Shown here: positions 12,167 through 55,899 of the stretch, in pieces | Layout of the letters: every line of letters starts with the position of its first letter | Position numbering within the stretch: position 1 is the first letter of the stretch | Source: a virus | Strand: one strand, 5' to 3' | Virus genome (UHGV): UHGV-0168042 | DNA length: 64,000 nt | Program-made: the position numbers and the translations under genes | Notes under the pieces: model-generated | Told to the model about the DNA's origin: nothing | What the model saw: the letters and a program-made list of their open reading frames with translations, nothing else | Database searches by the model: none

Positions 12167-12225
12167 CGTGCGGATAATCCGATTATTTGGCAGTTAAATC
12201 CCCGGCGTCGCCGGGGATGCAGCAT

Positions 12226-13167
12226 TTAACTAACAATCCAGTCCATAGCAATAACATCCTCTGGAGCTAAATCAATAGCATGGATTTTCCCGTCACGGAT
12301 GGTGCGCCAGTGCTTTCGTGATCCACCTTCGGGCCACACCCATATACCTTCAGGCCAGGAAGAACGACGACACACTGTTGCGTATCCAGTCCTGATCTTC
12401 TCTCTGACGGTATGTAGTGACAGATTATCCTTTGGGCTTTCAGGCACAGGATGGTGGATTGCCTGAAACATCCCCATCTTTGGATGATACCAGCGTTTAT
12501 TGCGTGGTTCTGCCTCCGACATCACCTGCTTAAAGGCTTTCCGGAAGGGGGCCAGGGCCACAATGGAGCGTCGCGCAAGCAAACCATCTGGAGTTAAAAA
12601 CTCATGCGTATCGGTGGGAATCCGGAAAGCGTTAACCAGGTTGCGACATTTGGCTTCAGTCAGGCCACATTTCGCCGCCAGCTGGCGGTAGCCAATGTAG
12701 CCTTCCGGAATATTGCCTTTCTTTATTTGCTCGAGTGTTTCAGCGACCATCGATACTTGTGCTGATACCTCGGCTACCTGGGCATTTACGGCGTTGATCC
12801 GGCGTTCATGCTCAAGATGCATTTGCGCCATTTCAGCCAGGATTTCGGCTTTTGATTTTAACTGTACCCGGGCATTCTCCAGTTCGCGCCAGCGGTCCAC
12901 CAGCCGGGCGGTGAATTCCGGAGAGAGCTGCGCGACGACAATGATGCTGTCTCGTTTTCCTTGTTCGCCTTCAAATATGTAAGCCTTGGAAAATCGACGA
13001 GGGCCAACTGATTGTTTATTTTCAATTTCCACAGATTGTGGAAATTGGATCACACTCTTTTTAGCCAGTGTTTCGATAGTTCTCTTCACACTATCTTGGC
13101 GACTTCCTACCAGTTCCGCGATCTCAATGCTGGTCATTGTCGCTTTTTGAGAGATGGACAGATTCAT
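12226..13167 (-). CDS. Rha-family phage regulatory protein (antirepressor-like), copy 1
   Basis: 313 aa; MTSIEIAELVGSRQDSVKRTIETLA N-terminus typical of Rha family; start ATG overlaps stop of upstream Icd-like gene (ATGA). Confidence 0.65.
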   Translation of the reverse strand: MNLSISQKATMTSIEIAELVGSRQDSVKRTIETLAKKSVIQFPQSVEIENKQSVGPRRFSKAYIFEGEQGKRDSIIVVAQLSPEFTARLVDRWRELENARVQLKSKAEILAEMAQMHLEHERRINAVNAQVAEVSAQVSMVAETLEQIKKGNIPEGYIGYRQLAAKCGLTEAKCRNLVNAFRIPTDTHEFLTPDGLLARRSIVALAPFRKAFKQVMSEAEPRNKRWYHPKMGMFQAIHHPVPESPKDNLSLHTVREKIRTGYATVCRRSSWPEGIWVWPEGGSRKHWRTIRDGKIHAIDLAPEDVIAMDWIVS

Positions 13168-13382
13168 CAGTGCACCTCCACGCAGTTCATTGGCAGATTC
13201 CAGTAATTGAGGATCTCCATCGCATCAAGAGTGAAGCGTGCGGCAAAAATGCAGGGTTCTTCAGGAAGGTATGAACGAGCTTCTGCTTCGGTTGCAGCCA
13301 TGACGCAGATATACAGGTGTTTTTGGCAGGAATAGAAACGCCAGATAAATTCAGAATGAGTTGGGGTAGGGATAGTAGCCAT
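13167..13382 (-). CDS. icd: Icd-like host cell division inhibitor family small protein, copy 1
   Basis: 71 aa; EFIWRF motif shared with second copy at 54099-54323; translationally coupled to Rha. Confidence 0.45.
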   Translation of the reverse strand: MATIPTPTHSEFIWRFYSCQKHLYICVMAATEAEARSYLPEEPCIFAARFTLDAMEILNYWNLPMNCVEVH

Positions 13383-13694
13383 ATTGGCAGCCTCCTTTTG
13401 CTAATTTAAGGAGCTACCGCGTGAGGTTCCAATCTCAATGGCGGTAGCACTGACTGGGTTGGAACTACCGGCGCAAAAGGGAACCGGCCTGCCTTTCGGC
13501 AGCCCAGCCAGCACTACCATTGATCTCTGAGCTAAACGCTACGTATGGCTGTGCGATGGCATGACACAAGAAAAGACGCTTTCGGCGTCTGTGTCGCCTT
13601 TTGCATTATCCGGGGTTCCAATCCCGGCACCCGTTTTTCTAAGGTGCCGTAGAAATATACCCCACGATAATGCCAGGGCGCAACAGTCAGTATT

Positions 13695-13862
13695 TTATGC
13701 TTTGGCGGATTTCTTCCGGGCTTGCTTGCAGGCGTAGGCCATTGCTTTAGCTTTCACTTCATCCAGCTTCCCGGTAATCACTTCTTTTCCGAGAGTGACA
13801 AACCAGTCATAGCAACCGCCAGTAATGTTCTTGATTTGAAAGTTGAGGTAGCGAACAGTCAT
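13695..13862 (-). CDS. Small hypothetical protein (55 aa)
   Basis: ATG with GGGGGAG RBS 6 nt upstream; MTVRYLNFQIKNITGGCYDWFVTLGKEVITGKLDEV...; below ORF-track cut-off. Confidence 0.3.
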   Translation of the reverse strand: MTVRYLNFQIKNITGGCYDWFVTLGKEVITGKLDEVKAKAMAYACKQARKKSAKA

Positions 13863-14182
13863 TTTGACTCCCCCAGCGCGAATAAAGAATGCAGATTATC
13901 GCGTGAGTGGTGGACGACGAGTGATGGGAAAAGACTGTAGTTGTTCATAGTGTAGTGACTCCTTGCTTTCGGAGCCGCCATCGACTGTTCCACGGTCTGG
14001 TGGCGGCGCAATAAAGGCTGGAACACCGTGAGTCAACGGGGGCTTTTCAGCCACCTATATTGCACCGCCATAGGTATGGCGGGGGCAATAATACGAAAAA
14101 CTAAACAGTTTGTCTCAAAAAGTTGACCGGTGTGCCAATCGGTAGTGAATGTACATCGGAGAAATTTACAATTCAACTTAAA

Positions 14183-14212
14183 ATGTTAGAAAACTAATTT
14201 ATTAATTCAATC
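14183..14212. promoter_or_regulatory. Operator-like motif ATGTTAGAAAACTAATTTA (degenerate full site) overlapping the ref stop codon
   Basis: Near-identical 19-mer recurs in reverse orientation at about 43721-43740 and a 15-mer at about 33307-33323. Confidence 0.4.
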
Positions 14213-14820: not shown

Positions 14821-14850
14821 AGTTAGATATTCAAAATTGATTTTCTAACA
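14821..14850. promoter_or_regulatory. Operator-like inverted repeat GTTAGA-N16-TCTAAC upstream of ref
   Basis: AGTTAGATATTCAAAATTGATTTTCTAACA, about 50-78 bp upstream of the ref ATG. Confidence 0.55.
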
Positions 14851-20074: not shown

Positions 20075-20104
20075 CGTTAGAACATTGATTTTAGTTTTCT
20101 AACA
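20075..20104. promoter_or_regulatory. Operator-like inverted repeat GTTAGA-N16-TCTAAC upstream of the 20147 operon
   Basis: CGTTAGAACATTGATTTTAGTTTTCTAACA, about 45-70 bp upstream of the ATG at 20147. Confidence 0.55.
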
Positions 20105-31839: not shown

Positions 31840-31912
31840 AGCACCCTCCTAAATAGGCGAGGGTACTTTACAGCAAAGGCGTTAATCTAAAAAGATGTGT
31901 TAGAAATTTAAT

Positions 31913-32941
31913 TTACGAATCCATCAGGCGGCTATTAGCCCCCACAGACACGCCGCCACGGCGAAGATACCGCATAAGTGTTTCCGGTTTCTTCCATGTT
32001 CCTTCCTGCATGATCTCCACCATAGACACCTGCTTTTCAGCCATATCAATAGCGGCCCCGACGCGTGCACTATGCCCGGTCCACGTCCGGTATCTTCCTT
32101 TGTTTGGCGTAGCATCTCTTTTATTCAGCAACACCCAGGCGTCGCTGAATATTTTCTCCATTGCAGGTGCAGTAAGGGGCGTTGTCGTGATCCTGGCCTT
32201 ATTGCTACGGTGTATCGGCGGGAACAGCACTGCGTCAGGATGTTCGCGAAGCCCGGAAACATCCAGCCAGTCATTCAGCACAGCGGTAGTGCGACGGGAA
32301 AGCACCTTATCAAGCCCGGCGGCGGTCGTTATTGTCTTCGTGTGTGAAATATGTAGCGTGACAGTGTCACCTGTTTGGTCCAGATCTCCTACACGAATAC
32401 GCGAGATTTCCGACATACGCATCAGCGTATTGTATGCAACAAAGAGAAAAGCCCGGTTGCGCAGGTCCACCAGCCGTTCTGACCTGGACAACAGGACGTC
32501 GAGCAGTTTCAGATCGTCCCACCGCAGCGGTATAGCCTGGCCTGTTCGTTCGCCTTTTTCCGTTGCCGCTTCACGCCGGATGCGCCGCATAGCCAGAGAA
32601 ACACTTTTATCATCCGAAAGTGGCGGAAGGCCACAATGCGAAAGCAGCATGTTAAGCATGGCGTAGTGCTTATCAATGGTGGTCGAAGCCAGATCAGCAT
32701 CATGCAGCTGGAGAAAATACTCGCGGGCCATCTCTGGTGAGATCGGGAACCAGGCGAGCTGGCGAGCGTGACACCATCTCGCCCAGGAGTGAAACACTAA
32801 CCGGAGATCGCGCAAAGTATTCGGCGCGTAAGCCCCCCGGTCATTCATGAACCGCATAAAGTTTTCTGCGGCCTCCTGGTACTCTTTGCCAATGTTGCGC
32901 AGAAAACCACCGGAGCTGCCAGAGATAATTAATTCACTCAT
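31913..32941 (-). CDS. dre: Cre-family tyrosine site-specific recombinase (Dre-like)
   Basis: 342 aa; aligns by eye with P1 Cre: WFPISPEMAREYFLQL vs WFPAEPEDVRDYLLYL, LRNRAFLFVAYNTLMRMSEISRIRVGDL vs IRNLAFLGIAYNTLLRIAEIARIRVKDI, TWTGHSARVGAAIDMA vs AWSGHSARVGAARDMA; palindromic site about 150 bp upstream. Confidence 0.85.
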   Translation of the reverse strand: MSELIISGSSGGFLRNIGKEYQEAAENFMRFMNDRGAYAPNTLRDLRLVFHSWARWCHARQLAWFPISPEMAREYFLQLHDADLASTTIDKHYAMLNMLLSHCGLPPLSDDKSVSLAMRRIRREAATEKGERTGQAIPLRWDDLKLLDVLLSRSERLVDLRNRAFLFVAYNTLMRMSEISRIRVGDLDQTGDTVTLHISHTKTITTAAGLDKVLSRRTTAVLNDWLDVSGLREHPDAVLFPPIHRSNKARITTTPLTAPAMEKIFSDAWVLLNKRDATPNKGRYRTWTGHSARVGAAIDMAEKQVSMVEIMQEGTWKKPETLMRYLRRGGVSVGANSRLMDS

Positions 32942-33306: not shown

Positions 33307-33323
33307 ATGTTAGAAAACTAAAT
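33307..33323 (+). promoter_or_regulatory. Operator-like motif ATGTTAGAAAACTAAAT in the leader of the 33336 gene
   Basis: 15-mer identical to sites near 14183 and 43721. Confidence 0.4.
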
Positions 33324-33335
33324 CGAGTAGGAATA

Positions 33336-34373
33336 ATGAGTAAGAAGTCGATCGAGAAAGAGTACAAACGGTTCCTGCAAACCGCTGAACGGTGGAAAGA
33401 GCTGGTGGTCGCAAACTCTGTTTTCCATGATACCAGTTATGCTGGCGAGGAATTCCGCCATGTTGCATTAACGCATGACCAAAACATATTAGAAGAAGCT
33501 GAAAAATGTCTTGCTGAATGGAAAGCCTTCGTTGACATGTGTCGCGATGCCGACGGCAAAGCGTCGAACATTGTTGAGTCTGTATATTCTCCGATCCCAT
33601 TCATCATTGAGGACACCAATCAAAGCACGCATGTTGTTGTGCAAAGCGCTACAACAACACGTACATTTACACGTGAGCAATTGCTCAAAAAATACGACAA
33701 AATCATAAAGAAAAGCCTGAAAAATAGGGTTTTTTCTCAAATCGTAGGTGCTCTTGAAGAAGAACAGCGCTTCTTTGAAGCTGAGCCTGAAGGCGAGATC
33801 TACCGGGCGCGTAAAGAGGCATATACAGATGTTGTGCTGACAACAAACATCGAAGGCAGCAATGCCCTTTCTCGCTTTAGAGTTGGCGCACATGGCGCAT
33901 TGGTTTTCGCAAGACTACCGAAGACAACGATCCCCGTTGTCAATAATGTTGGTGAACGCCGGAGCATTACAATTTATTCTGGCGTCGAATCGGTACCTTG
34001 CAGCCTTCTCGGCGATTTTAACTTATATCGTGTTCGTGACCTGGAAAAACACCAGCCAAGCTACGTTGCGAAGTCGTACATCTTAAGGAACATCGATATT
34101 CGCAACGAAAACCTTAAGCAGAAATCCGCTAAGATGCTGGAGGATGCCGATCCGGCCATTCGCCATATCATTGAACGTAAGATTCGTACATCGCGTGAAG
34201 CAATGGCAAGGCTGGATAAAATGGATCTGGAATTGTTAGACGTAATGATGGCCTCTGGAGACGACCTGACCGGCATCAAACTGAATGAAGCGCGTAAAAA
34301 ATACGGCAAAGCAATCGAAGAACGTTACGGATACACATTCCCCCAAACGCAGCACGCCGCAAAGCTCTGGTAA
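33336..34373 (+). CDS. Hypothetical protein next to recombination site (candidate regulator; function unknown)
   Basis: 345-aa ORF; AGGAA RBS; sits between rox-like site and terminase in the position occupied by immunity genes in P1 (positional inference only). Confidence 0.45.
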   Translation: MSKKSIEKEYKRFLQTAERWKELVVANSVFHDTSYAGEEFRHVALTHDQNILEEAEKCLAEWKAFVDMCRDADGKASNIVESVYSPIPFIIEDTNQSTHVVVQSATTTRTFTREQLLKKYDKIIKKSLKNRVFSQIVGALEEEQRFFEAEPEGEIYRARKEAYTDVVLTTNIEGSNALSRFRVGAHGALVFARLPKTTIPVVNNVGERRSITIYSGVESVPCSLLGDFNLYRVRDLEKHQPSYVAKSYILRNIDIRNENLKQKSAKMLEDADPAIRHIIERKIRTSREAMARLDKMDLELLDVMMASGDDLTGIKLNEARKKYGKAIEERYGYTFPQTQHAAKLW

Positions 34374-37663: not shown

Positions 37664-37741
37664 TAATCCCCCGGCAGGAAATGACCGAGGGGATGATAAT
37701 GAGAATGTTAAAACTGTATAGACTGGTAAAAAGATGATTAT

Positions 37742-37769
37742 ATTAGAAAATTAATATTAAATACCTAAC
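37742..37769. promoter_or_regulatory. Operator-like inverted repeat ATTAGA-N16-CCTAAC
   Basis: ATTAGAAAATTAATATTAAATACCTAAC in the 108-bp intergenic region upstream of 37271-37663. Confidence 0.45.
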
Positions 37770-39190: not shown

Positions 39191-39266
39191 TGGTGGCCCC
39201 TACCGGACTTGAACCGGTGACCGTGCGATTATGAGTCGCCCGCTCTAACCACTGAGCTAAAGGGCC
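39191..39266 (-). tRNA. tRNA with CAU anticodon, most similar to tRNA-Ile2 (lysidine-modified, AUA-reading)
   Basis: GGCCCTTTAGCTCAGTGGTTAGAGCGGGCGACTCATAATCGCACGGTCACCGGTTCAAGTCCGGTAGGGGCCACCA; cloverleaf folds; anticodon stem-loop identical to E. coli ileX as recalled. Confidence 0.8.
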
Positions 39267-41103: not shown

Positions 41104-41179
41104 TGGTGCCGGTTAACGGACTCGAACCGCTGACATCCTGCTTACAAGGCAGGCGCTCTACCAACTGAGCTAAACCGGC
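41104..41179 (-). tRNA. tRNA-Thr (anticodon UGU)
   Basis: GCCGGTTTAGCTCAGTTGGTAGAGCGCCTGCCTTGTAAGCAGGATGTCAGCGGTTCGAGTCCGTTAACCGGCACCA; canonical stems. Confidence 0.8.
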
Positions 41180-41181
41180 AT

Positions 41182-41258
41182 TGGCGATGGTGGGTGGATT
41201 CGAACCACCGACCGACAGCTTAGAAGGCTGCTGCTCTATCCTACTGAGCTACACCATC
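41182..41258 (-). tRNA. tRNA-Arg (anticodon UCU, AGA/AGG-reading)
   Basis: GATGGTGTAGCTCAGTAGGATAGAGCAGCAGCCTTCTAAGCTGTCGGTCGGTGGTTCGAATCCACCCACCATCGCCA; 2 nt from tRNA-Thr. Confidence 0.8.
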
Positions 41259-43720: not shown

Positions 43721-43740
43721 TTAAATTAGTTTTCTAACAT
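43721..43740 (-). promoter_or_regulatory. Operator-like motif ATGTTAGAAAACTAATTTAA (minus orientation) upstream of 42493-43701
   Basis: 19/20 identical to the site at 14183-14202. Confidence 0.45.
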
Positions 43741-45690: not shown

Positions 45691-48600
45691 TTAGGCCGCA
45701 TCGGCGATTATTTTACGCAGTTCATCTACCGAGTAACGCGTAGATACCATCCACGCCGGACGGTCAAAGTTCACATCAGCAACCGGGTTTGCTTCAAAAT
45801 TCCAGAAACGCCCGCCAATCTTCTTAATCGCGTCTTTGGCGTTCCGTATTGTCGAGGAACCTGGCTGGTCGGCAATGAGATAAACCGCGCCAACGTCTTC
45901 GCTGACGCTCCACCAGCGCCCGCGAACACGCGCCTTAGCGCGAATCGGCTTATCATTAACCACAATGATATAGTCATCATTCGCCGCTTCATCAGCTCTG
46001 GCTTCAGCCACTGCCGCCTGCTCTTCTCTTTTGCTTTCAGCCTGCTCAAGCCTTTCCGCGATCTCTGATTCAGTGGCCCCGCCGTTTTTCAGCGATACAT
46101 AGTCCTGCCATGTTGCCGATTTGAGCGTATCCGGCAACTCATTCACATAGTCGCCGTCTTTCAACTCACGGGCGCGACGGGTAGCCATTTCTACCAGGCG
46201 ATTAACAGAAACAGCATCAGCAAAATCGTCCTTACTAATGTGTTTTTCATCAAATGCATTGATGACAGCCCCCACCTTAATCCACTGTGCTGCTGGTGAT
46301 TCCAGGGGGTTATCAGCCTGAACAATGGCAAGTTTCGCTCCATCTACCCCATTATTCGCCAGCTGTTCCAGTGCCGCCCATCCATCTGCATCACTGAGTG
46401 ATTTATATTGCTCAAACAATGCATCGCGCCAGGCCACCAGCGCAGAACGTGTTTTTTCGATCTTCGCCTTAATTTTCGCGATCTTGACCTGATTAAACAT
46501 CCGTTCAATATCATCGATATTGCTAAAGGCTTTCATCCTGCCCTGGAATAAACGGTATGCCAGCACGGTCCTCCAGAATGATTCCAGACCTTCTCCGGAC
46601 GGTTTGCGGAACAAGCTAAGAATATCTTCAGAAGTGACTTTATTAAGCGAACGACCTGACAGACCACGCCCAGCCATCCAGTTTTCGAACTCCTGGGCAA
46701 CATCATCCATCGTTGCCTGTGCGCCCCATGCCTGCATTCCCTGGATGTAATCATACCCATACAATGCCTGGAGGAATCCCTCGCCGTCCACGATATTCAG
46801 CGGGTTATCACTGGCTTGTATTTTTGCCACTTCACGCTTCAGCGCCTCGTCGTTGCCATCAGGATATATCCATCGCTCAGGTGCTATATCCGATGCTCGC
46901 CCGATTTTTTGGCCTATCACGCCATCATAGGTCGATGACAGCGCGATCTGACCATCATCTGTGCGATAAGCCCAGTATTTAATAGCTGACCCACCGCCCC
47001 ATGCATTACCAGGTTTACCAGCAATAACATTCATTACCCCATTGCGAATAGCATCATAGAACTGATCGCGAGTAAGTATTGTTGATAGCTGGTGGCACTG
47101 AACACCACGCGCAGCCGTTGCGCGCGATTCAGCTACCCCCTCTTCAAAAGTTACCGCTTCAATCACTGAGTCAAACGGTAATGTTACGATTGATCCAGGT
47201 GATCGAGCGTAACGGCTTGCTCTATCCAGCCAGGCGATACGACAGAGGTATTGTGCTTTTTCACCATCAATTTTTTCCACCCGGACAATCGCTGTTGTTT
47301 CGCGATCATCAATGACTGCACGGTAATAACTACCTTTATGCAACAGAATGTTCTTGTCAGTGCGCATATATTCTTGCGGGTTCTGAATAACATCGATACT
47401 GATATCCAGCACACCAGACTTAATAGCGCGCTCCACATCACCACGAGAGCGTTTCATTATGGTATCCGCGTCTTTTGCCCTGGTGATCGCAAACCGCAGC
47501 ACCCGCGCACGTTTTCTGTAGCTACTCAACTGCTCAAGCGCGTATTTTTGCCCATTCCTGTTCGTACCCGCTTTTATCAGGTCGTCAAGATTGCGCTGGT
47601 AATACTCTATCTGTTCCATCGCGCTTTTCAGTTCTGTCTCCATCATGCCGATATCTTTTCCGGCGGCGTTTGCCGCTTTCAGGTAGATATCGAGAGCATT
47701 GTTGGCCTCGCGCTGTGCTTTCAGTTTCAGACGTTCTTCACGCTCTTGCGCCTGGCGAGTCATGATTGCGCGGCGTTCTTCCGGGTTTGCCGCCAGCATA
47801 ATGGCGCGTTCATCAGCATCATCCGCATCACCATTGGCGATCTCTGACATGTCGGAGGTCATCACCATCTTGATCCAGTCTTTCTTACGTTTCAGCGTAT
47901 CCAGACGGAAGTCGTCGAATGTGCCTTTGCCACAATAGTAGTGAACATTGACCTTCTCTTGCGGTGAACCTACGCGCGCACCGCGCCCATTTCGTTGGTC
48001 GATACTGGCTGGTGTCCAGGGTAGTGTCAGGTGGTGGATATCGGTTGTCCCGATGTGCAGGTTAATACCTACTTCAGCCTTCTTGTTACAGATTATGATA
48101 CGCGTGCGACCTTCGTTATAGTCGGCGGCAATACCTTCCATGCCCTCAAGGCCAGCATCATTTTTAGCTGAGAGATAATCCTCATATTGGGCAAGTTTGC
48201 TGTAGTAGGTTTCCCATGCCCCTTCTTTGTATTCACCGTTTTTGTTTGGAGTAGGTTCGGTCGGCTTATTCACCTTCTTCAGCTTGATGCCGCCAGCCTG
48301 GCTAACTGTCGTCGCATTGATAATGCCAATCTCCTGCTCCGGCATTTGCAGTGCACTGGCGATAATACGGCGCAGCTTCTGGTGCTGGGCTTTTTCATCA
48401 ATAAAGACGATCTGCTTACCGTTCTTCAGACCTTCACGAAGATTTTCGATCAGCGCGGCATACTTCGGCGGGATGGGGTGCGATACCTGCTGCATATCAA
48501 TGCCGGCAGCCGCAATGGCCTTCAGTATTTCAGCTTCCAGTTCAATGCTGGCACGTATTTCAACATGCGTCGGATGTTCACTAAAAGCGGTCTTCACTAC

Positions 48601-51600
48601 CTTGCTGGTACGCGTACTGACCAGCCCGCCAGCGCCGTCTTCCTCGGCCTCATCAACATCATCTGCCACTTTACCGCCAGCTACTTTTGGCAAGGCATCA
48701 GCAATAGCTTTTACCTGGTCTGCAAGCTCAACGGGGAACTGGAATGTAATCGCACTGGCATACAGATCCGGGTCTATAGCAACCTTGTCCATGTCACGGA
48801 TGATGGAGAAGATGAAATCATCCGGTTTGTCGTTAGTGATATGCCCGTTTTCATCGACTGTCAGCTCATCATTGCGACTTAACTCCTGAGCACGCTTACG
48901 AAGCTCTTCATAAGCAGTCTCCTGCTCCCCTGTCATCGGGATCTGCAAGGTGTTCTCGATGATGTCGGGAATTTTAACCGTCGCTCCGACATCTGCAGCA
49001 GTCTTCAGAGTGGTCCAACGATGGAAAATACCACGCAGGCCGTCAAGGTTCTGGAAGCCCACCAGCCCCTGCTTCTCTTCCACTTCCCCGGAAATTTTCT
49101 GGACCTGAACTGTGGCTGTTTTGCCAAACACACGAACGAAATCATCAGGCGTAATGATGCCCATGCGCATCCACTCTTCCTGCGGAATGACAGTAGACAG
49201 CATGTTGAAGGCATCAATCGGACTGTTCACCAGCGGTGTTGCCGTCAGCATGACTACACCACGCCCGTTGTTGCGTTTCATCATGTACGCAGCTTTTACA
49301 ACCATGTCGCGGGCCATCTTGGATACTGCCGGGTTAGGCAAATATGCCAATTGTCCCGCTTCACGCCCGGCATTAAAGGAGTTGCGGTAGTTATGCCCCT
49401 CGTCGGCAATCACGCTATCGAAGTTCATATCCTCAAAGTACGGGATATTCTGCTTCTTCGTTGTACCGGTATTCGCGGCCTGATCCTTAATCTTGTTCTT
49501 CTTCTGCGCATCACGGTGTTTACCGGACGCCAGGTCAAGACGCCCCATTTCCACAGCATTAAAGACAGCTTGCTGTGAGTTCTCCTCGATGGTTTTTTCT
49601 CGTAGCGGGATAGACGCGAATTGTTCTTTTGTCATGATGACCGTTCGCCAATTTGACGACGGGATCATGTTCATGCGCTGAACGATAACGGCGCTGGCGG
49701 ACTCTTTCACAACATTTCTGGTAAGAGGCTGCCCGTTACTGTCGAGGCGTGGTTCGCCATTTTCATCAAGCACCGGCGCGGTCAGAATATTTCCGCTGTC
49801 ATCACGAACTTCATCCAAACCGATAAACATCATATTGGCGAAGGCATCAGCACTGTAGAAACTCTGTGCCTCGTGATACCAGTTCTGATAAACCGCCTTC
49901 GGAACAACAATACACGTGCGTTTAGTGCGACCTGTTTCGAAGTTATACGCCTCAAGCGCAAGCGCGGTCGTGGTTTTACCCAGCCCGGTACCAAATCCCA
50001 TGATGCCGCGCCCATCTTCTGACAAGCGCCGAACTTCTTCATTCTGATAAGTAAGAGGAATGCGCTTTCCACTAAGCCCTTCCAGGCCAAGCGGTGCGTC
50101 AGAATGCGTGAACGGAATGAAACCATTGAATGCGTCGTTATACTCGCGGGCTATCTGATCAGCCTGCGGGTGAGTGCGTAACCAGTCGTTAAAACTAACT
50201 TCCAGTTGAGCAATTTTATCCAGGTACTCGTTAGCGTTCTGCCCACGCGGTTTAACACCGTTCAGGTAGTTTTCTAACTGGTTCAGGAAGCCGTCTTTAT
50301 TGTTGGCCTTCTTGAACTCATTCCCGTTTTTGCCGTTTACGGTTCGTAGCTGATAGCCGGTAAATACCCCGTCCTTACCTTCGTAATCGTCCGGAGATAC
50401 CAGAATGCCATCGACGACCTTCAGATCAGGTTCAGTGTACTTAAACTCGTCATAGCCCTGCTCTGCCAGGAACTCTTTTATCAAGCGGCGATCCAGCCAG
50501 CGGGCATTCAGATTAACGGTGACTTTATTTAGTGGCGTGAAAATGCGTTTCTCTTCGATTTTCGCCAACTGACGCTCAAAGTTCGCTTTCTGCTCACCTG
50601 TTGACGCATCACGCCAGCCCACCAGCAATGCTGTTTTGGTTGCAACATCGCCGCTGGTGGCGCGGTCCATCGGCAGCAGACAGCCATACCCATCAATAGC
50701 GATATCATCAAATTTCGCCAGGTATTCAAGGGCCGCGTCGTCGTCCTCTGGCAGTTCACCAGCAAACGCCTCACGAAAGTCTCCCAGCGTTATAGGATTA
50801 AGGGCTACATCACTGAAAAGATGTGCTATCACTTGTTCAGGACGTGTAAAGTCAATACCGGCAGCACCATCCGTTACATCAAGTCGCCCTGCCAGAAGGT
50901 CAGAAGTGGAACCATCCTGTTTCACATTGCCAGTGAACGTCATCCAGTTTTTAGCGCCAGCTTCAGCAAGCCCATTCAGCTTAATGGCGTGCGGTGGTCC
51001 ATACTTCGCAACTTCTGCTGCCGCCAAGCGGGATGCATCTGCCAGTTTGTCATCAACGTTCACACCCAGGTTACGCAAATCAAGTGCCTTGTTGATCAAC
51101 TGACCTATCAGCGCACCGCGCATAACGCGCTCCCTGTCTTTTTCTCGCTGCTTGCCAGCAAAGCGAATCATTGCTGCCACTTCATCACTGACAACCGATG
51201 GATAGTCGGACGCGATCGCCGATATCTGGTCCCATGACAAAGCCAGAATCCCGTTTGTTGACTGGAACGCGATCTGCAGATCGCCAAACGTCGAAACACC
51301 ATATCGACTTACATCAAGCGCGGAGGATTTGGTTGTCGTGTCCTTAACCCATTTCAGACCATCAAACTCATGCCAGATACCGCCTACAAGGCGTTTATCG
51401 CCCACTTTCGCGCCCTGCCATGCCTGAGTAGTTACGCCGAGCAAATCCCAATTGATGCGACTATCAAAGCGACGAGATAGCGCGGTTTTCATCGACTCAT
51501 TGGATACACGACCGTCTTTTTTCACCACCAGGGTATTGCGGAAGCTGGTACGTTCCATGTCGCCGTAAACAAATCGCTTCCCTTCGGTTGTAAACCATTT

Positions 51601-52527
51601 TCCTTTGAGGAAGGTATCCCAAAGGACGTTTGCCGATTTGAGTGTTGAATCATCCGTGTCGGGGATCATCTCCAGGAAGGTTTCCGGGTGTTTACGCAAT
51701 ACCCATACGTCCACCACGGTATCTGTACCGGATTCGCTGAACGTACCAGAAGGCATACGATGTGCGCCCAAAAATTCCGCTTTACGGCTGACTTTATCGC
51801 GCAATTTTTTATATTTCGCACCATCGGTCATGCCATTCGGCACCACCAATACGATAAGCCCACCAGGCTTAACCTTGTCGATCGTGCGCAGCACAAAGTA
51901 ATTGCCAACGTTCTTCTCGTTTGCATATGCCGGATCAAGCCCGGCGACACCGGAACGCCCTTCACCAAACGGTACGTTACCAACAGCGTGGTCATACATT
52001 GCGTCTTTCGCCGCCAGTGCCTCAAACGCCCCGATATTCACATCGTCTTCCGGGTGCAAAAGCTGGTTTATTCGACCAGAAATCGGAGACAGTTCGGCGC
52101 TGGTCATTATCATGCCCTGCCGTTTTGTCTCCTGGAAAATACCTGTGCCCGCTGATGGTTCCAGTACGTGCCCGTCATCAATACCGTAGTCAGCAAACAG
52201 ATCCCATATACCTTCAGCCATAAACTGTGGCGTGTAGTATTCGTATTGGCTGCCCTCACCATCTGTCAGGCCACCTTCACCGGTATACCCGGCAAGAATC
52301 TGACGTTGTTCGTCAGTTAATTTCGCCCCATCGAAGCCGGGCGGAAGGGAATTAAGAAGATTTACTGCGGCGTTGTTTGCTGCCCGGCGTGTTTTCTGAA
52401 TACTGACGCCATCGGCTTTCCTGACGCCAAAGGTCGCAACAGCACGTAATTTATGCAACCGACTAACAATCTCAATCAGTTCGCCTAAGCTGGAGGCTTC
52501 ACTGATTGAATGAAGTAGTTTGTCCAA
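45691..52527 (-). CDS. darB: DarB-like giant methyltransferase-helicase protein
   Basis: 2278 aa; N-terminal N6-adenine MTase-like region (VGNVPFGE, DPPY-like), central SF2 helicase motifs (GFGTGLGKTTTALAL Walker A, ADEGHNYRN DExH box, QRNGRGARVGSPQ motif VI); TTG start with GAGGGGG RBS. Confidence 0.8.
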   Translation of the reverse strand: MDKLLHSISEASSLGELIEIVSRLHKLRAVATFGVRKADGVSIQKTRRAANNAAVNLLNSLPPGFDGAKLTDEQRQILAGYTGEGGLTDGEGSQYEYYTPQFMAEGIWDLFADYGIDDGHVLEPSAGTGIFQETKRQGMIMTSAELSPISGRINQLLHPEDDVNIGAFEALAAKDAMYDHAVGNVPFGEGRSGVAGLDPAYANEKNVGNYFVLRTIDKVKPGGLIVLVVPNGMTDGAKYKKLRDKVSRKAEFLGAHRMPSGTFSESGTDTVVDVWVLRKHPETFLEMIPDTDDSTLKSANVLWDTFLKGKWFTTEGKRFVYGDMERTSFRNTLVVKKDGRVSNESMKTALSRRFDSRINWDLLGVTTQAWQGAKVGDKRLVGGIWHEFDGLKWVKDTTTKSSALDVSRYGVSTFGDLQIAFQSTNGILALSWDQISAIASDYPSVVSDEVAAMIRFAGKQREKDRERVMRGALIGQLINKALDLRNLGVNVDDKLADASRLAAAEVAKYGPPHAIKLNGLAEAGAKNWMTFTGNVKQDGSTSDLLAGRLDVTDGAAGIDFTRPEQVIAHLFSDVALNPITLGDFREAFAGELPEDDDAALEYLAKFDDIAIDGYGCLLPMDRATSGDVATKTALLVGWRDASTGEQKANFERQLAKIEEKRIFTPLNKVTVNLNARWLDRRLIKEFLAEQGYDEFKYTEPDLKVVDGILVSPDDYEGKDGVFTGYQLRTVNGKNGNEFKKANNKDGFLNQLENYLNGVKPRGQNANEYLDKIAQLEVSFNDWLRTHPQADQIAREYNDAFNGFIPFTHSDAPLGLEGLSGKRIPLTYQNEEVRRLSEDGRGIMGFGTGLGKTTTALALEAYNFETGRTKRTCIVVPKAVYQNWYHEAQSFYSADAFANMMFIGLDEVRDDSGNILTAPVLDENGEPRLDSNGQPLTRNVVKESASAVIVQRMNMIPSSNWRTVIMTKEQFASIPLREKTIEENSQQAVFNAVEMGRLDLASGKHRDAQKKNKIKDQAANTGTTKKQNIPYFEDMNFDSVIADEGHNYRNSFNAGREAGQLAYLPNPAVSKMARDMVVKAAYMMKRNNGRGVVMLTATPLVNSPIDAFNMLSTVIPQEEWMRMGIITPDDFVRVFGKTATVQVQKISGEVEEKQGLVGFQNLDGLRGIFHRWTTLKTAADVGATVKIPDIIENTLQIPMTGEQETAYEELRKRAQELSRNDELTVDENGHITNDKPDDFIFSIIRDMDKVAIDPDLYASAITFQFPVELADQVKAIADALPKVAGGKVADDVDEAEEDGAGGLVSTRTSKVVKTAFSEHPTHVEIRASIELEAEILKAIAAAGIDMQQVSHPIPPKYAALIENLREGLKNGKQIVFIDEKAQHQKLRRIIASALQMPEQEIGIINATTVSQAGGIKLKKVNKPTEPTPNKNGEYKEGAWETYYSKLAQYEDYLSAKNDAGLEGMEGIAADYNEGRTRIIICNKKAEVGINLHIGTTDIHHLTLPWTPASIDQRNGRGARVGSPQEKVNVHYYCGKGTFDDFRLDTLKRKKDWIKMVMTSDMSEIANGDADDADERAIMLAANPEERRAIMTRQAQEREERLKLKAQREANNALDIYLKAANAAGKDIGMMETELKSAMEQIEYYQRNLDDLIKAGTNRNGQKYALEQLSSYRKRARVLRFAITRAKDADTIMKRSRGDVERAIKSGVLDISIDVIQNPQEYMRTDKNILLHKGSYYRAVIDDRETTAIVRVEKIDGEKAQYLCRIAWLDRASRYARSPGSIVTLPFDSVIEAVTFEEGVAESRATAARGVQCHQLSTILTRDQFYDAIRNGVMNVIAGKPGNAWGGGSAIKYWAYRTDDGQIALSSTYDGVIGQKIGRASDIAPERWIYPDGNDEALKREVAKIQASDNPLNIVDGEGFLQALYGYDYIQGMQAWGAQATMDDVAQEFENWMAGRGLSGRSLNKVTSEDILSLFRKPSGEGLESFWRTVLAYRLFQGRMKAFSNIDDIERMFNQVKIAKIKAKIEKTRSALVAWRDALFEQYKSLSDADGWAALEQLANNGVDGAKLAIVQADNPLESPAAQWIKVGAVINAFDEKHISKDDFADAVSVNRLVEMATRRARELKDGDYVNELPDTLKSATWQDYVSLKNGGATESEIAERLEQAESKREEQAAVAEARADEAANDDYIIVVNDKPIRAKARVRGRWWSVSEDVGAVYLIADQPGSSTIRNAKDAIKKIGGRFWNFEANPVADVNFDRPAWMVSTRYSVDELRKIIADAA

Positions 52528-52677: not shown

Positions 52678-53163
52678 ATGGCAAACATTGAACCTCGCTG
52701 GCTAATTGAAGCCCGTAAGCACATTGGCCTGACTGAAATAAAAGGCGCTAAACACAACCCTGAAATCGTTCAGTTCTGGCGCGACATCAAGCGCGGCGGA
52801 ATTAAAGACGATGAAACGCCGTGGTGCGCAGCATTTGTCGGTGCAATGCTGGAACGTGTAGGCATCCGCTCAACAAGATTTGAGTCGGCAAAATCCTATC
52901 TGGATTGGGGCGAGAAATTAGATACACCGGCATACGGATGTATCGTTGTATTTACCCGCGTAGGCGGTGGGCACGTAGGCTTCGTTGTCGGACGCCGCGC
53001 CAATGGCGATCTGCTTGTCCTGGGTGGGAACCAGGGGGATGCGGTTAATATTCGCGCATTCCCAACATCAAGAGTGTCTGGCTATCGCTGGCCTGCTGGC
53101 GAACCACGCAATACCGCTCTGTTACCAGTCGGAGACGCAGCAACCTCAACTAATGAGGCATGA
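52678..53163 (+). CDS. TIGR02594-family protein (putative cell-wall hydrolase-like)
   Basis: 161 aa; W..EAR.HIGL.EI.G...NP.I..FW...PWCAAFVGA...GGGHVGFVVG pattern. Confidence 0.45.
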   Translation: MANIEPRWLIEARKHIGLTEIKGAKHNPEIVQFWRDIKRGGIKDDETPWCAAFVGAMLERVGIRSTRFESAKSYLDWGEKLDTPAYGCIVVFTRVGGGHVGFVVGRRANGDLLVLGGNQGDAVNIRAFPTSRVSGYRWPAGEPRNTALLPVGDAATSTNEA

Positions 53164-53194
53164 AAAAGCCCCGGCCAGGCCGGGGCATCACGCT

Positions 53195-53395
53195 TCAAGT
53201 CACCATCCAATCATTACCGATTATATCAGCCGTCGATAAATCAACTTCCCGGATCTGGAGTCCATTAATACAAAACCATCCGGTAGTAGAGTAATTATCA
53301 GGCCAGGCCCATACACCAACACTCCATGCTTTACGGCGGCACACTTCAGCCTGTCCTTCCCTGATTTTTTTTACCGCCTGCATGATGTCCATCAC
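53195..53395 (-). CDS. Small hypothetical protein
   Basis: 66 aa; start overlaps stop of Rha copy 2; shares KKxxRxxW motif with the C-terminus of 29839-30516. Confidence 0.3.
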   Translation of the reverse strand: MMDIMQAVKKIREGQAEVCRRKAWSVGVWAWPDNYSTTGWFCINGLQIREVDLSTADIIGNDWMVT

Positions 53396-54099
53396 TCACC
53401 TCCCCAACCGATCACCTGGAATTGCCCCATTTTGGGGTGATACCAGCGTTTTCCTCGGTGTTCAGCCTCCGACATCATCCGGTTAAAAGCATTCATGAAG
53501 GGAGATAAGGCCACGATGGAACGACGCGACAATACCCCCTCTGGAGTTAAAAACTCATGCGTATCGGTGGGAATCCGGTAAGCGTTAACCAGGTTGCGAC
53601 ATTTGGCTTCAGTCAGGCCGCATTTCGCCGCCAGCTGGCGGTAGCCAATGTAGCCATCTGGCATATTGCCCTTCTTGATTTGCTCGACGGTTTCAGCGAC
53701 CTGGCTAACCTTTGACTCAACAGCATGAAGCCGCTTTTGCTGCTGAACTGCATTTGCAGCCATTGCGGCGATCATCTCTATTTCGGTCAACGGCTGGCGT
53801 ACTTGTTCTTCCAGTTCGCGCCAGCGGTCCACCAGCCGGGCAGTAAACTCAGGACAAAGCTGTGCGACTACAATGATACTGTCTCGTTTGCCTTGCTCGT
53901 CGCTAAATCGGAACACCTGAATTAATCGAGAACGCCCCATTACATCTATTTTTGGTTCATCCTCAATTTGAGGACGAACAATAACGCCGGATTCGGCTAA
54001 TGTTTCAATGGTACGCTTCACATTGTCATGACGTTTTCCCACCAGCTCCGCGATCTCAATGCTGGTCATTGATGGCTTTTCAAGAATGCAGATATCCAT
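53392..54099 (-). CDS. Rha-family phage regulatory protein (antirepressor-like), copy 2
   Basis: 235 aa; MTSIEIAELVGKRHDNVKRTIETLA; central region near-identical to copy 1 (KRDSIIVVAQL, TARLVDRWRELE, GYIGYRQLAAKCGLTEAKCRNLVNA). Confidence 0.65.
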   Translation of the reverse strand: MDICILEKPSMTSIEIAELVGKRHDNVKRTIETLAESGVIVRPQIEDEPKIDVMGRSRLIQVFRFSDEQGKRDSIIVVAQLCPEFTARLVDRWRELEEQVRQPLTEIEMIAAMAANAVQQQKRLHAVESKVSQVAETVEQIKKGNMPDGYIGYRQLAAKCGLTEAKCRNLVNAYRIPTDTHEFLTPEGVLSRRSIVALSPFMNAFNRMMSEAEHRGKRWYHPKMGQFQVIGWGGE

Positions 54100-54323
54100 C
54101 AGTGTGCCTCCGCAATGCCGGGATTGGTAATATTGCGATACCAGGGATTAGTGTTTGGTTGTGGGGAAGTAGAGAAACGACCAGTAAGAACACCATGCTG
54201 ATCAGGGATCAGAGAACGGGCTTCTTTTTCGGTTGCGGCAATTGCGAAGTGATCGCAGTGTTTTTGCAGGGAGTGGAAACGCCAGATGAATTCTGGACGT
54301 GAGCAAGGATTGGCATTAACCAT
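54099..54323 (-). CDS. icd: Icd-like small protein, copy 2
   Basis: 74 aa; EFIWRFHSLQKH; coupled to Rha by ATGA overlap. Confidence 0.45.
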   Translation of the reverse strand: MVNANPCSRPEFIWRFHSLQKHCDHFAIAATEKEARSLIPDQHGVLTGRFSTSPQPNTNPWYRNITNPGIAEAH

Positions 54324-54653
54324 AGTTACGGCCTCACTAACAGGTTTAACAACCTGCTACCCGCTGTCAAACAGGTGGCAGGACGTGACAGGGTTGACAG
54401 ACTGGCGTTAGTGAAACCAGCAGGCCGAAGCCTCCCCATCACGCCCCACCATAATTCGGGCGTAACGCGGTTTACGGACACAAAAATACCGCAATATCGG
54501 AAATCTGCGGTTGTCCGCACTAACATTCAGGCTGTCAAACCTGGTCGCAGAATTTGCTACGACGGCATGAATATAAGCCTGAAAACATGGAAGATCAACT
54601 AAAAATTTCAGCAATGGATGACTTCAGTCGATGATGCAGATCATACATTCCGA

Positions 54654-54681
54654 TTTAGAAACAGCAAATTAATTTTCTAAC
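54654..54681. promoter_or_regulatory. Operator-like inverted repeat TTTAGA-N16-TCTAAC upstream of icd/rha copy 2
   Basis: TTTAGAAACAGCAAATTAATTTTCTAAC, about 330 bp upstream of the icd-like ATG. Confidence 0.5.
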
Positions 54682-54736
54682 ACAAATCATCGAGCGAGCA
54701 TTTTCCGATCATTGGGATGCTTTGTAGACACACAGG

Positions 54737-55796: not shown

Positions 55797-55899
55797 CAGT
55801 CGCTACCGGAGCAGTGACCGCGATCCTACTCGATCCCATCCACCAGGATCAACAGTGTATATAAATACACTATGTTAGAAATTTAACTTAACAAGGCGA

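Follow-up and report, generated by a model that had tools for sequence, protein, structure and literature searches.

Two probable immI-type c4 antisense RNA cassettes of different specificity in a D6-like, P1-related plasmid prophage

Two candidate immI-type cassettes

A stretch of 64,000 nucleotides (nt) from virus genome UHGV-0168042, the whole of which is referred to here as the window, very probably carries two complete cassettes of the immI type, in each of which a c4 antisense RNA would block translation of a short Icd-like open reading frame (ORF) and a coupled antirepressor gene (ant) of the Rha/Roi type. The observations behind this reading are RNA family membership, pairing geometry, orthogonality, comparative covariation and gene overlaps. 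The regions of the two cassettes, called module 1 and module 2, were 94-95% identical over their full length to phage D6 (MF356679 / NC_050154), where module 1 corresponds to orf82/orf83 beside ref and module 2 to orf17-orf19 beside repL, and the 93-kb E. coli plasmid CP057047 showed 100% identity across the module-1 leader. Thus, the window belongs to a D6-like, P1-related plasmid prophage. An earlier sequence-only reading had proposed an antisense-RNA layout of the P1 immI type for both places, and this was borne out, as the Rfam C4 family was found above its gathering score in both leaders with a1/b1 elements upstream. Its claim that an Icd-like ORF is coupled to a Rha-type gene was also consistent with both modules, with the ORFs located where it had put them and joined by one-base TGATG overlaps. 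A probable third c4-like unit, c4-3, lies further upstream in module 1 and is treated separately below. All genes, RNAs, promoters and terminators described here lie on the minus strand unless stated otherwise.

In module 1, Ant-1 (12226-13167, 313 amino acids (aa), Rha/Roi-type) shares one base of its start with the stop of the Icd-like ORF icd-1 (13167-13382, 71 aa), which matched NF033153 with 49.4 bits against a cut-off of 25 and belongs to phrog_1426. The c4-1 antisense RNA at 13437-13524 scored 76.7 bits with Rfam C4 (RF01695), compared with a gathering score of 45. Its two recognition segments are b′ CCUUUUGC (13473-13480), in the loop of hairpin 2, and a′ GUUCCAA (13459-13465), in the linker. 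The targets downstream of it (13391-13432) are a2 UUGGAAC (13426-13432) and b2 GCAAAAGG (13394-13401), the latter overlapping the Shine-Dalgarno sequence (SD) AAGGAGG of icd-1 (13391-13397). On the other side of c4-1, the same words recur as decoy sites a1 UUGGAAC (13615-13621) and b1 GCAAAAGG (13597-13604), within an IsrK-type a1/b1 leader RNA at 13569-13647 that matched Rfam isrK (RF01394) with 59.4 bits against 50, and a terminator scan placed an intrinsic terminator at 13568-13590, ending the IsrK-like RNA. In the minimum-energy fold of the whole module-1 leader, a1/b1 were paired in cis with the loop and linker of c4. Just upstream of the IsrK-like RNA, a promoter-like site (unit 1B, 13654-13683; TTGCGC, 18-nt spacer, TATATT) was read by eye; its hexamers are kept in two P1-like plasmids (L007 and L008), where they are preceded by the P1-type operator CTTGCTCTAATAAATTG. 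The G+C-rich hairpin CCCCGGCGACGCCGGGG after ant-1 (12200-12216), which has a weak U tract and was not called by the scanner, is probably the terminator of module 1.

Module 2 has the same arrangement. The c4-2 antisense RNA (54371-54456) scored 68.8 bits against the C4 gathering score of 45, with recognition segments b′ UCACUAAC (54407-54414) and a′ CUGUCAA (54394-54400). Its targets (54332-54370) are a2 UUGACAG (54364-54370) and b2 GUUAGUGA (54334-54341), overlapping the SD of icd-2, and its decoys a1 UUGACAG (54532-54538) and b1 GUUAGUGC (54517-54524) lie in an a1/b1 leader (54482-54576) that matched Rfam c4-a1b1 (RF03163) at 54524-54576 with 54.4 bits against 46.7. The promoter-like site at 54570-54598 (TTGATC, 17-nt spacer, TATATT) aligns with the annotated P1 promoter P1c4 (P51b), and an operator-like 17-mer on the minus strand at 54666-54682, an exact motif match, aligns with the position of Op51/Oc4 in P1. 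Downstream, the Icd-like ORF icd-2 (54099-54323, 74 aa; NF033153, 40.3 bits against 25) shares one base of its stop with Ant-2 (53392-54099, 235 aa, Rha/Roi-type; TGATG), and Ant-2 in turn overlaps, again in TGATG, a 65-aa ORF (53195-53392; D6 orf17, phrog_7385), after which an intrinsic terminator of 8 G-C pairs followed by TTTTT (53163-53186) closes the module.

The sequence-only reading had asked for a comparison with the c4 RNAs of P1 and P7. The 77-nt core of c4-2 (54374-54450) was identical to P1 c4, and c4-2 with a1, b1, a2 and b2 reproduces base for base the sites annotated in P1, while P7 differs in both the a and the b set. The P1-like tract, ~93% identical, runs from the promoter into icd-2, covering its 5′ ~110 nt. 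The module-2 leader is a P1-derived recombinant, so that the two modules are mosaics and not the products of a recent duplication. The description of the two modules as duplicated with different specificities is therefore right as to the specificities, which share no cross-complementary word of 7 nt or more, and loose as to the duplication, with 45% identity between the Icd proteins and 65% between the Ant proteins.

Rfam isrK also matched the module-2 leader, at 54482-54563, with a score below its threshold (43.5 bits, < 50) and overlapping the c4-a1b1 match. From this overlap, isrK and c4-a1b1 appear to be the same kind of element; isrK lies outside Rfam clan CL00128.

Leader repeats

Three repeats had been singled out from the sequence alone as leader elements, GGTAG[TC]TCC (at 13410 and 13461), TTGGAACC (13425 and 13614) and GTTTGACAGC (54363 and 54531). 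Each was indeed confined to the leaders, with exactly two copies in the 64 kb. TTGGAACC and GTTTGACAGC proved to be the a elements of modules 1 and 2, whereas GGTAG(T/C)TCC is no recognition element and the b elements had been overlooked. As a candidate recognition repeat, GGTAG(T/C)TCC was rejected, since its copies are direct repeats and not complementary, and their likeness is not kept in two relatives (L005, L008). One copy, located in the spacer between a2 and b2, is able to pair with the SD region of icd-1, as read by eye; the other extends over a′ and the stem of hairpin 2 in c4-1. The a2-b2 spacer contains the GGTAGCTCC that the earlier reader had quoted.

The spacer has a further property. 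Part of the spacer copy, the segment GCGGTAGC (13413-13420, minus strand), has its complement, GCUACCGC, in the 3′ strand of the outer stem of c4-1, and this complementarity is kept with other letters in L005 (GGCGGTGG with CCACCGCC); at a length of at least 7 nt it was seen in 26 of 51 distinct c4 loci. It may represent an alternative pairing in the unprocessed transcript. RefSeq/PGAP and PLSDB give no non-coding RNA feature here and place a 39-aa coding sequence for an 'ash family protein' at 13401-13520 (minus strand), almost exactly over c4-1, with the same call at 2542-2661 in L007. Here an RNA gene has probably been mistaken for a coding sequence.

Pairing, specificity and covariation

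Both c4-1 and c4-2 fold into the three-way shape of the family, with a long outer stem, two inner hairpins and a single-stranded linker, and the folding z-scores of the leaders were -5.2, -3.9 and -6.2. The complementarity check that had been suggested for the leader elements gave a clear answer, in that both segments of each c4 are perfectly complementary to sites on either side of it. Target words were perfect over 7-8 nt at a and b for c4-1 and c4-2, and b2 covers an SD in all three units. In order to estimate chance matches, sequences were shuffled with dinucleotide composition kept. Complements of both a′ and b′ downstream of c4 appeared in 33, 28 and 85 of 20,000 shuffles (~0.15-0.4%, the last figure being that of c4-3), and complements on both sides of c4 in 0 of 20,000.

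The specificity of module 1 is thus given by a′ GUUCCAA with a1/a2 UUGGAAC and b′ CCUUUUGC with b1/b2 GCAAAAGG, and that of module 2, which is the P1 specificity, by a′ CUGUCAA with a1/a2 UUGACAG and b′ UCACUAAC with b1/b2 GUUAGUG (GTTAGTG in DNA). No complementary word of 7 nt or more was found between the recognition segments of either c4 and the targets of the other module, and the cognate duplex energies were the most favourable in each case. As judged by complementarity, the two main cassettes are orthogonal.

Relatives showed how these elements change. For example, between the window and D6, a′ of module 1 differs as GUUCCAA to GUCUCAA, and both a1 and a2 differ correspondingly as UUGGAAC to UUGAGAC, while in module 2 of D6 b′, b1 and b2 are all changed together. 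The natural D6 variants thus include the pairs GUCUCAA with UUGAGAC and CGUAAGU with ACUUACG. In plasmid CP042620, the a set and the b set of module 1 are both changed, L005 and L008 provide module-1 types with compensatory changes, that of L008 with G.U pairs, and in P7 both the a and the b sets have changed. Changes between close relatives fall mostly within the recognition elements, compensating one another at three sites simultaneously. For the window and D6, this pattern points to selection for pairing.

We extended this comparison to 80 further IMG/VR loci, which were collected with the Ant-2 protein; c4 was located in them by a hidden Markov model (HMM) and a′/b′ were extracted by position. 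Among 30 distinct a′/b′ types from 91 loci, a2 and b2 paired at 7 of 7 positions in 29 types, and in all 30 when one G.U was allowed, compared with ~2% of non-cognate combinations. The low a1/b1 scores that the survey returned for L007 and L001 are an artefact of its narrow search window, as direct comparison shows perfect matches. The sampled loci contained at least 10 a types and ~18 b types. These elements reassort, as in a combination of the b element of P1 with the a element of P7.

Proposed mode of action

Each cassette would be read on the minus strand in the order operator-like 17-mer and promoter, a1/b1 decoys, c4 of ~80 nt, a2/b2, Icd-like ORF and Ant. By analogy with P1, the c4 RNA would be cut from the leader transcript, and its loop (b′) and linker (a′) would then pair with b2 and a2 on transcripts of the same kind. 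Because b2 covers the SD of icd, icd is proposed to stay untranslated while c4 is bound, and because ant would depend on the translation of icd, through coupling and transcriptional polarity as in P1, the antirepressor is proposed to be off as a result. In this way, a lysogen may keep ant off both in its own prophage and on incoming genomes that share its specificity. The a1/b1 copies would pair with the same segments of c4, probably as competitors, and in module 1 they form an IsrK-type RNA that ends in a terminator of its own and could, in trans, titrate c4 and switch ant on. IsrK as a decoy for c4 would be the simplest reading that unifies module 1 with the Gifsy-1 prophage of Salmonella.

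A third c4-like unit upstream in module 1

A permissive search of the whole window with Rfam C4 detected c4-3 on the upstream side of the IsrK-like RNA (13996-14075; 40.2 bits, E 3.4e-4), with b′ UGACUC (14030-14035) in the loop and a′ UGUUCCA (14019-14025) in the linker. RNAalifold on 5 relatives returned the c4 three-way fold. Its targets (13956-13992) are perfect words of 7 nt for a (a2 UGGAACA, 13986-13992) and 6 nt for b (b2 GAGUCA, 13956-13961), both invariant in relatives, and b2 overlaps the SD AAGGAG (13959-13964) of a 29-aa leader ORF (13859-13948, MNNYSLF...). This ORF overlaps, in ATGA, the conserved 55-aa gene downstream of c4-3 (13695-13862; D6 orf85, phrog_7786), and some relatives (L006, L010) have a 61-aa Icd-like gene instead of the 29-aa ORF. 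A promoter-like site (unit 1A, 14148-14176; TTGAAT, 17-nt spacer, TACATT) was read by eye 7 nt downstream of the operator-like copy that heads module 1; it lies below the threshold of the consensus scanner, and both hexamers are kept in ~80% identical relatives in which the spacer diverges. The region of c4-3 was found in 119 PLSDB plasmids, and relatives with only ~80% identity in the flanks have kept c4-3, a2/b2 and the promoter hexamers. We regard c4-3 as a probable, though not an established, further c4 unit, and on its pairing pattern it appears to control the 29-aa ORF and the coupled 55-aa gene in the same way as c4 controls icd.

The a′ segments of c4-3 (UGUUCCA, 14019-14025) and c4-1 (GUUCCAA, 13459-13465) have six bases in common, and some cross-pairing of the two RNAs with each other's a sites is possible. 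In D6, where a′ of c4-1 is GUCUCAA, this overlap is lost. Four IMG/VR prophage contigs (L035, L058, L059 and L084) each carry two c4 on the same strand, with different a′/b′, 650-850 nt apart and downstream of an Ant-like gene. Thus, D6-like plasmids are not alone in having tandem c4 units.

Operators and repressor

The 17-mer TGTTAGAAAAyTAATTT occurred 12 times in the window, compared with 0.27 copies expected by chance. The copy at the head of module 1 (14184-14200, reading TGTTAGAAAACTAATTT on the plus strand) overlaps the stop codon of ref and lies ~110 nt upstream of c4-3 and ~800 nt upstream of icd-1. The sequence-only reading had placed an operator about 300 bp upstream in both modules; this is nearly so for module 2, where the distance to icd-2 is ~345 nt, and does not apply to module 1. 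Further copies are found at 2721-2750, 14834-14850, 20075-20104, 31898-31914, 33308-33324, 37741-37757, 43723-43739 and 55873-55889, those at 2721-2750 and 20075-20104 being overlapping inverted pairs. There are copies upstream of ref (14834-14850) and upstream of repL, and the one at 33308-33324 lies directly upstream of a distant C1-repressor homologue on the plus strand (33336-34373, 345 aa), to which a P1-like C1 aligned by tblastn (20.7% identity over 242 aa, E 3e-7). A C1 homologue has been reported in D6-like plasmids (PMC6799933). From its distribution, the 17-mer is probably the operator of a D6-type C1, and the C1 homologue is presumed both to bind it and to be the target of the Ant proteins.

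The arrangement of the copies is similar to that of the dispersed monovalent and bivalent C1 operators of P1, with another sequence. The P1 C1 operator consensus ATTGCTCTAATAAATTT was also tried and gave 0 matches in the window with up to 3 mismatches.

Effector and associated proteins

Both Ant proteins matched PHROG 63 'anti-repressor Ant' strongly (E 3e-60 and 6e-47). With Pfam Rha (Phage_pRha, PF09669; cut-off 29.9 bits), which covers the N-terminal domain, Ant-2 scored 37.2 bits and Ant-1 28.1, just below the cut-off, while a close relative of Ant-1 (P0005) reached 36.9. Ant-1 and Ant-2 are 65% identical and the two Icd proteins 45%. A 119-nt tract of the ant genes (12587-12705 and 53540-53658) showed 97.5% identity (3 mismatches), compared with 73% for the genes overall, which suggests exchange between the two modules by gene conversion.

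The C-terminal ~60 aa of Ant-1 (12226-12400) are homologous, with 43% identity, to the separate 65-aa ORF of module 2. Relatives of this ORF numbered 3 by a word-indexed search and 7 by a full HMMER scan. Members of its family, phrog_7385, matched the Tad2-like/DUF2829 domain (PF11195; Tad2 is Thoeris anti-defence 2) over the full length and below the threshold of 25 bits, with 15.3, 14.0 and 23.9 bits (E 0.029, 0.076 and 6.2e-5). The AlphaFold model of the 65-aa ORF had a predicted local distance difference test score (pLDDT) of 62.8, that is, low confidence, and Foldseek against the PDB returned nothing with E < 0.9.

Among the neighbouring genes, a DarB-like methyltransferase/helicase ORF of 2278 aa (45691-52527, minus strand) lies close to module 2, and its D6 counterpart is labelled 'similar to P1 gene darB'. 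Three tRNA genes are located on the minus strand at 39194-39266, 41107-41179 and 41185-41258.

Alternative explanations

Several points weigh against the reading of the two modules as c4-controlled antirepressor cassettes. No 17-mer stands directly before the IsrK-like promoter of module 1, and the operator-like site of that module is ~500 nt away from the promoter and in opposite orientation. Expression and processing of the c4 RNAs, as well as the translational and polarity control, are features that we infer for this element from its likeness to P1. For c4-3, the Rfam C4 score misses the gathering score (40.2 against 45 bits), stem changes among the 5 relatives were one-sided only, with no covariation found, and only imperfect a1/b1-like sites were seen upstream. 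As to the effector, BLASTP detected no similarity between Ant-1 and P1 Ant1 (E 0.32), the proteins fall in a Roi/Rha group whose members are labelled variously as DNA-binding proteins or antirepressors, and their activity against a D6-type C1 is our assumption; that they would inactivate it is suggested by position, family annotation and the Gifsy-1 analogue. Finally, the IsrK locus of Gifsy-1 has been interpreted as a positive switch and not as an immunity system (PMC4825925). If this interpretation were carried over, module 1 would mainly be a switch of the IsrK/AnrP type, with a silent read-through fold that IsrK opens in trans and a c4 segment that is mostly structural, a possible but rather unlikely account. 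It would fit the isrK match above gathering score at 13569-13647, ending in an intrinsic terminator, and the cis pairing of a1/b1 with c4 in the leader fold, which resembles 'structure A' of Gifsy-1, where IsrK in trans raised translation of the coupled antirepressor-like gene >100-fold (PMC4825925). However, the same leader holds a full C4 match (76.7 bits) whose a′/b′ pair with a2/b2 over the SD of icd, and a2/b2 covary with c4 in 29 of 30 types, which a model of pure opening by IsrK does not require. A positive switch is also compatible with c4 control if IsrK serves as a sponge for c4, and would then be an added layer more than an alternative.

The RNA control could also be as we describe it while the Rha/Roi proteins are no antirepressors of their own C1 and act instead as DNA-binding regulators or as weapons against the repressors of other prophages. 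We consider this unlikely. Besides the lack of detectable similarity to P1 Ant1, it is favoured by the annotation of the closest phage relatives as Roi, DNA-binding protein or Rha and by the identical c4-1 cassette of P1-like plasmids, which drives a KilAC-domain antirepressor (370 aa), so that cassette and effector are exchangeable; opposed to it are the strong PHROG 63 matches, the location downstream of c4-icd, which is the position of ant in P1, and the observation that anrP, the Gifsy-1 equivalent, induces the prophage on expression (PMC4825925). It is very improbable that either module, or the c4-3 unit, is a leftover of recombination, decaying and now without function. The sub-threshold score of c4-3, its stem mismatches, its want of clean a1/b1 sites, and the 29-aa ORF that follows it where relatives have a 61-aa Icd-like gene would suit a relic, yet all ORFs of both main modules are intact, the four recognition sites of each module are perfect, the differences from D6 are compensatory and concentrated in recognition elements, and c4-3 with a2/b2 and its promoter hexamers has been conserved between flanks of ~80% identity. 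Even less credit is due to the idea that the repeated leader motifs are protein-binding sites, operators or iterons, and not RNA pairing elements. Short direct repeats do flank the structured region, with a repressor operator-like motif nearby, but among relatives the repeats vary only together with the complementary loop and linker of c4, whereas a protein site would stay conserved, and the candidate operator is a different, dispersed 17-mer.

Significance

Phage heteroimmunity that is determined by a small RNA has its classic example in the c4/immI system, and c4, c4-a1b1 and isrK are curated Rfam families. What the window holds is a known kind of phage immunity control, to which our results add refinements, leaving the known mechanism unchanged. 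They indicate that one plasmid prophage can carry two orthogonal c4 locks, probably with a third, and that the c4-icd leader is a swappable cassette, present here as an exact P1 copy with a non-P1 effector, while the module-1 cassette occurs elsewhere with another effector. They would also make the Salmonella small RNA IsrK an a1/b1 decoy of a c4 unit, joining two separate literatures. In the literature searched, a scope that left the D6 genome paper outside, we found no description of the orthogonality of the two locks, of the difference from D6 in the specificity of both modules, of an exact P1 c4 driving a non-P1 effector, or of the link between IsrK and c4 and the third c4-like unit. Phage-plasmids of the D6-like and P1-like kinds are frequent in E. 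coli and Salmonella and include carriers of resistance genes; c4 specificities should predict which of them co-reside or induce each other. Genome annotation at present labels the c4 gene as a protein ('ash family protein').

A more far-reaching idea, which we hold to be doubtful, is that the three c4 units form a hierarchical, combinatorial RNA lock, including a cascade and a space of immunity types. Only the outermost promoter of module 1 would then carry the repressor operator; a drop in C1 would allow transcription through c4-3 and the two small ORFs to the IsrK-like decoy, the extra decoy would titrate c4-1, and the prophage would be committed to the synthesis of Ant-1, while module 2 would be an independent second lock with P1 specificity. 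If this were true, free reassortment of a and b elements, multiplied by 2-3 locks per genome, would give a very large space of immunity types, which would govern coexistence and induction among D6-like and P1-like prophages, including cross-immunity at the RNA level despite unrelated repressors.

Comparison with known systems

In P1, according to the work of Citron, Schuster, Biere, Heinrich and Riedel, c4 is reportedly processed from the leader and pairs with a2/b2, blocking icd and thereby the synthesis of Ant. The same authors are said to have linked icd to ant by coupling and polarity, and to have found that a1/b1 compete for c4. The order in immI of P1 and P7 (operator, promoters, a1 b1, c4, a2 b2, icd and overlapping ant, with b2 over the ribosome-binding site of icd) is the one seen here, and P1 and P7 differ in specificity by compensatory changes, as do the relatives of this element. 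The P1 genome record labels the a/b sites as C4 binding sites repressing icd/ant translation, and P1 C1 binds dispersed operators while Ant synthesis is repressed by c4 RNA (PMC8546580). Unlike P1, the element has an effector of the Rha/Roi type with no in-frame Ant2, lacks kilA, has repL upstream and not downstream, uses another operator motif and encodes a C1 homologue that is only ~21% identical. P1 has a single immI cassette, compared with two and a third c4-like unit in the window.

The isrK-orf45 (STnc1160)-anrP locus of Gifsy-1 offers a close parallel to the IsrK-like part of module 1. In Gifsy-1, the IsrK read-through transcript carries a coupled short ORF and an antirepressor-like gene, and it gives rise to the processed STnc1160, which is complementary to IsrK (PMC4825925). 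Module 1 likewise has an isrK match with an intrinsic terminator, and read-through of it would yield an equivalent transcript. The published model for Gifsy-1 is trans-activation by IsrK through a structural switch, with no repression of the c4 type invoked, whereas in module 1 IsrK and ant are separated by a clear C4 match and an Icd-like ORF. The outcomes also differ, being antitermination by AntQ in Gifsy-1 and, presumably, inactivation of C1 here.

D6 and D6-like plasmid prophages (pYU39_89, PMC6799933) have both modules at matching places in the genome. As early as 2019, D6-like plasmids were noted to have a second c4/icd region, and the D6 record annotates no RNA genes. The window differs from D6 in the specificity of both modules, by the a set in module 1 and by the b set in module 2. 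In 2019, P1-like plasmids were also reported to have extra ant cassettes between pacB and c1 (PMC6906374); in the IncY plasmids RCS47 and pTZ20_1P this is an extra c4-icd-ant cassette, and thus a second immI-type cassette in one genome, as in the window. In L007, the IsrK-like leader and the c4 both show 100% identity to those of c4-1, with the same promoter hexamers. The effector of the P1-like IncY plasmids is a ~370-aa KilAC-domain antirepressor, and their promoter has a P1-type operator directly before it, unlike the element studied here, which has a Rha/Roi-type effector and, upstream, the c4-3 unit with two small ORFs.

A further analogue may be the CI RNA of phage P4 with seqA and seqC, a processed small RNA that would likewise have complements on either side of itself within its transcript. 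P4 CI acts by premature transcription termination and has no Icd/Ant coupling. The parallel between IsrK and P4 was drawn in the study of IsrK (PMC4825925).

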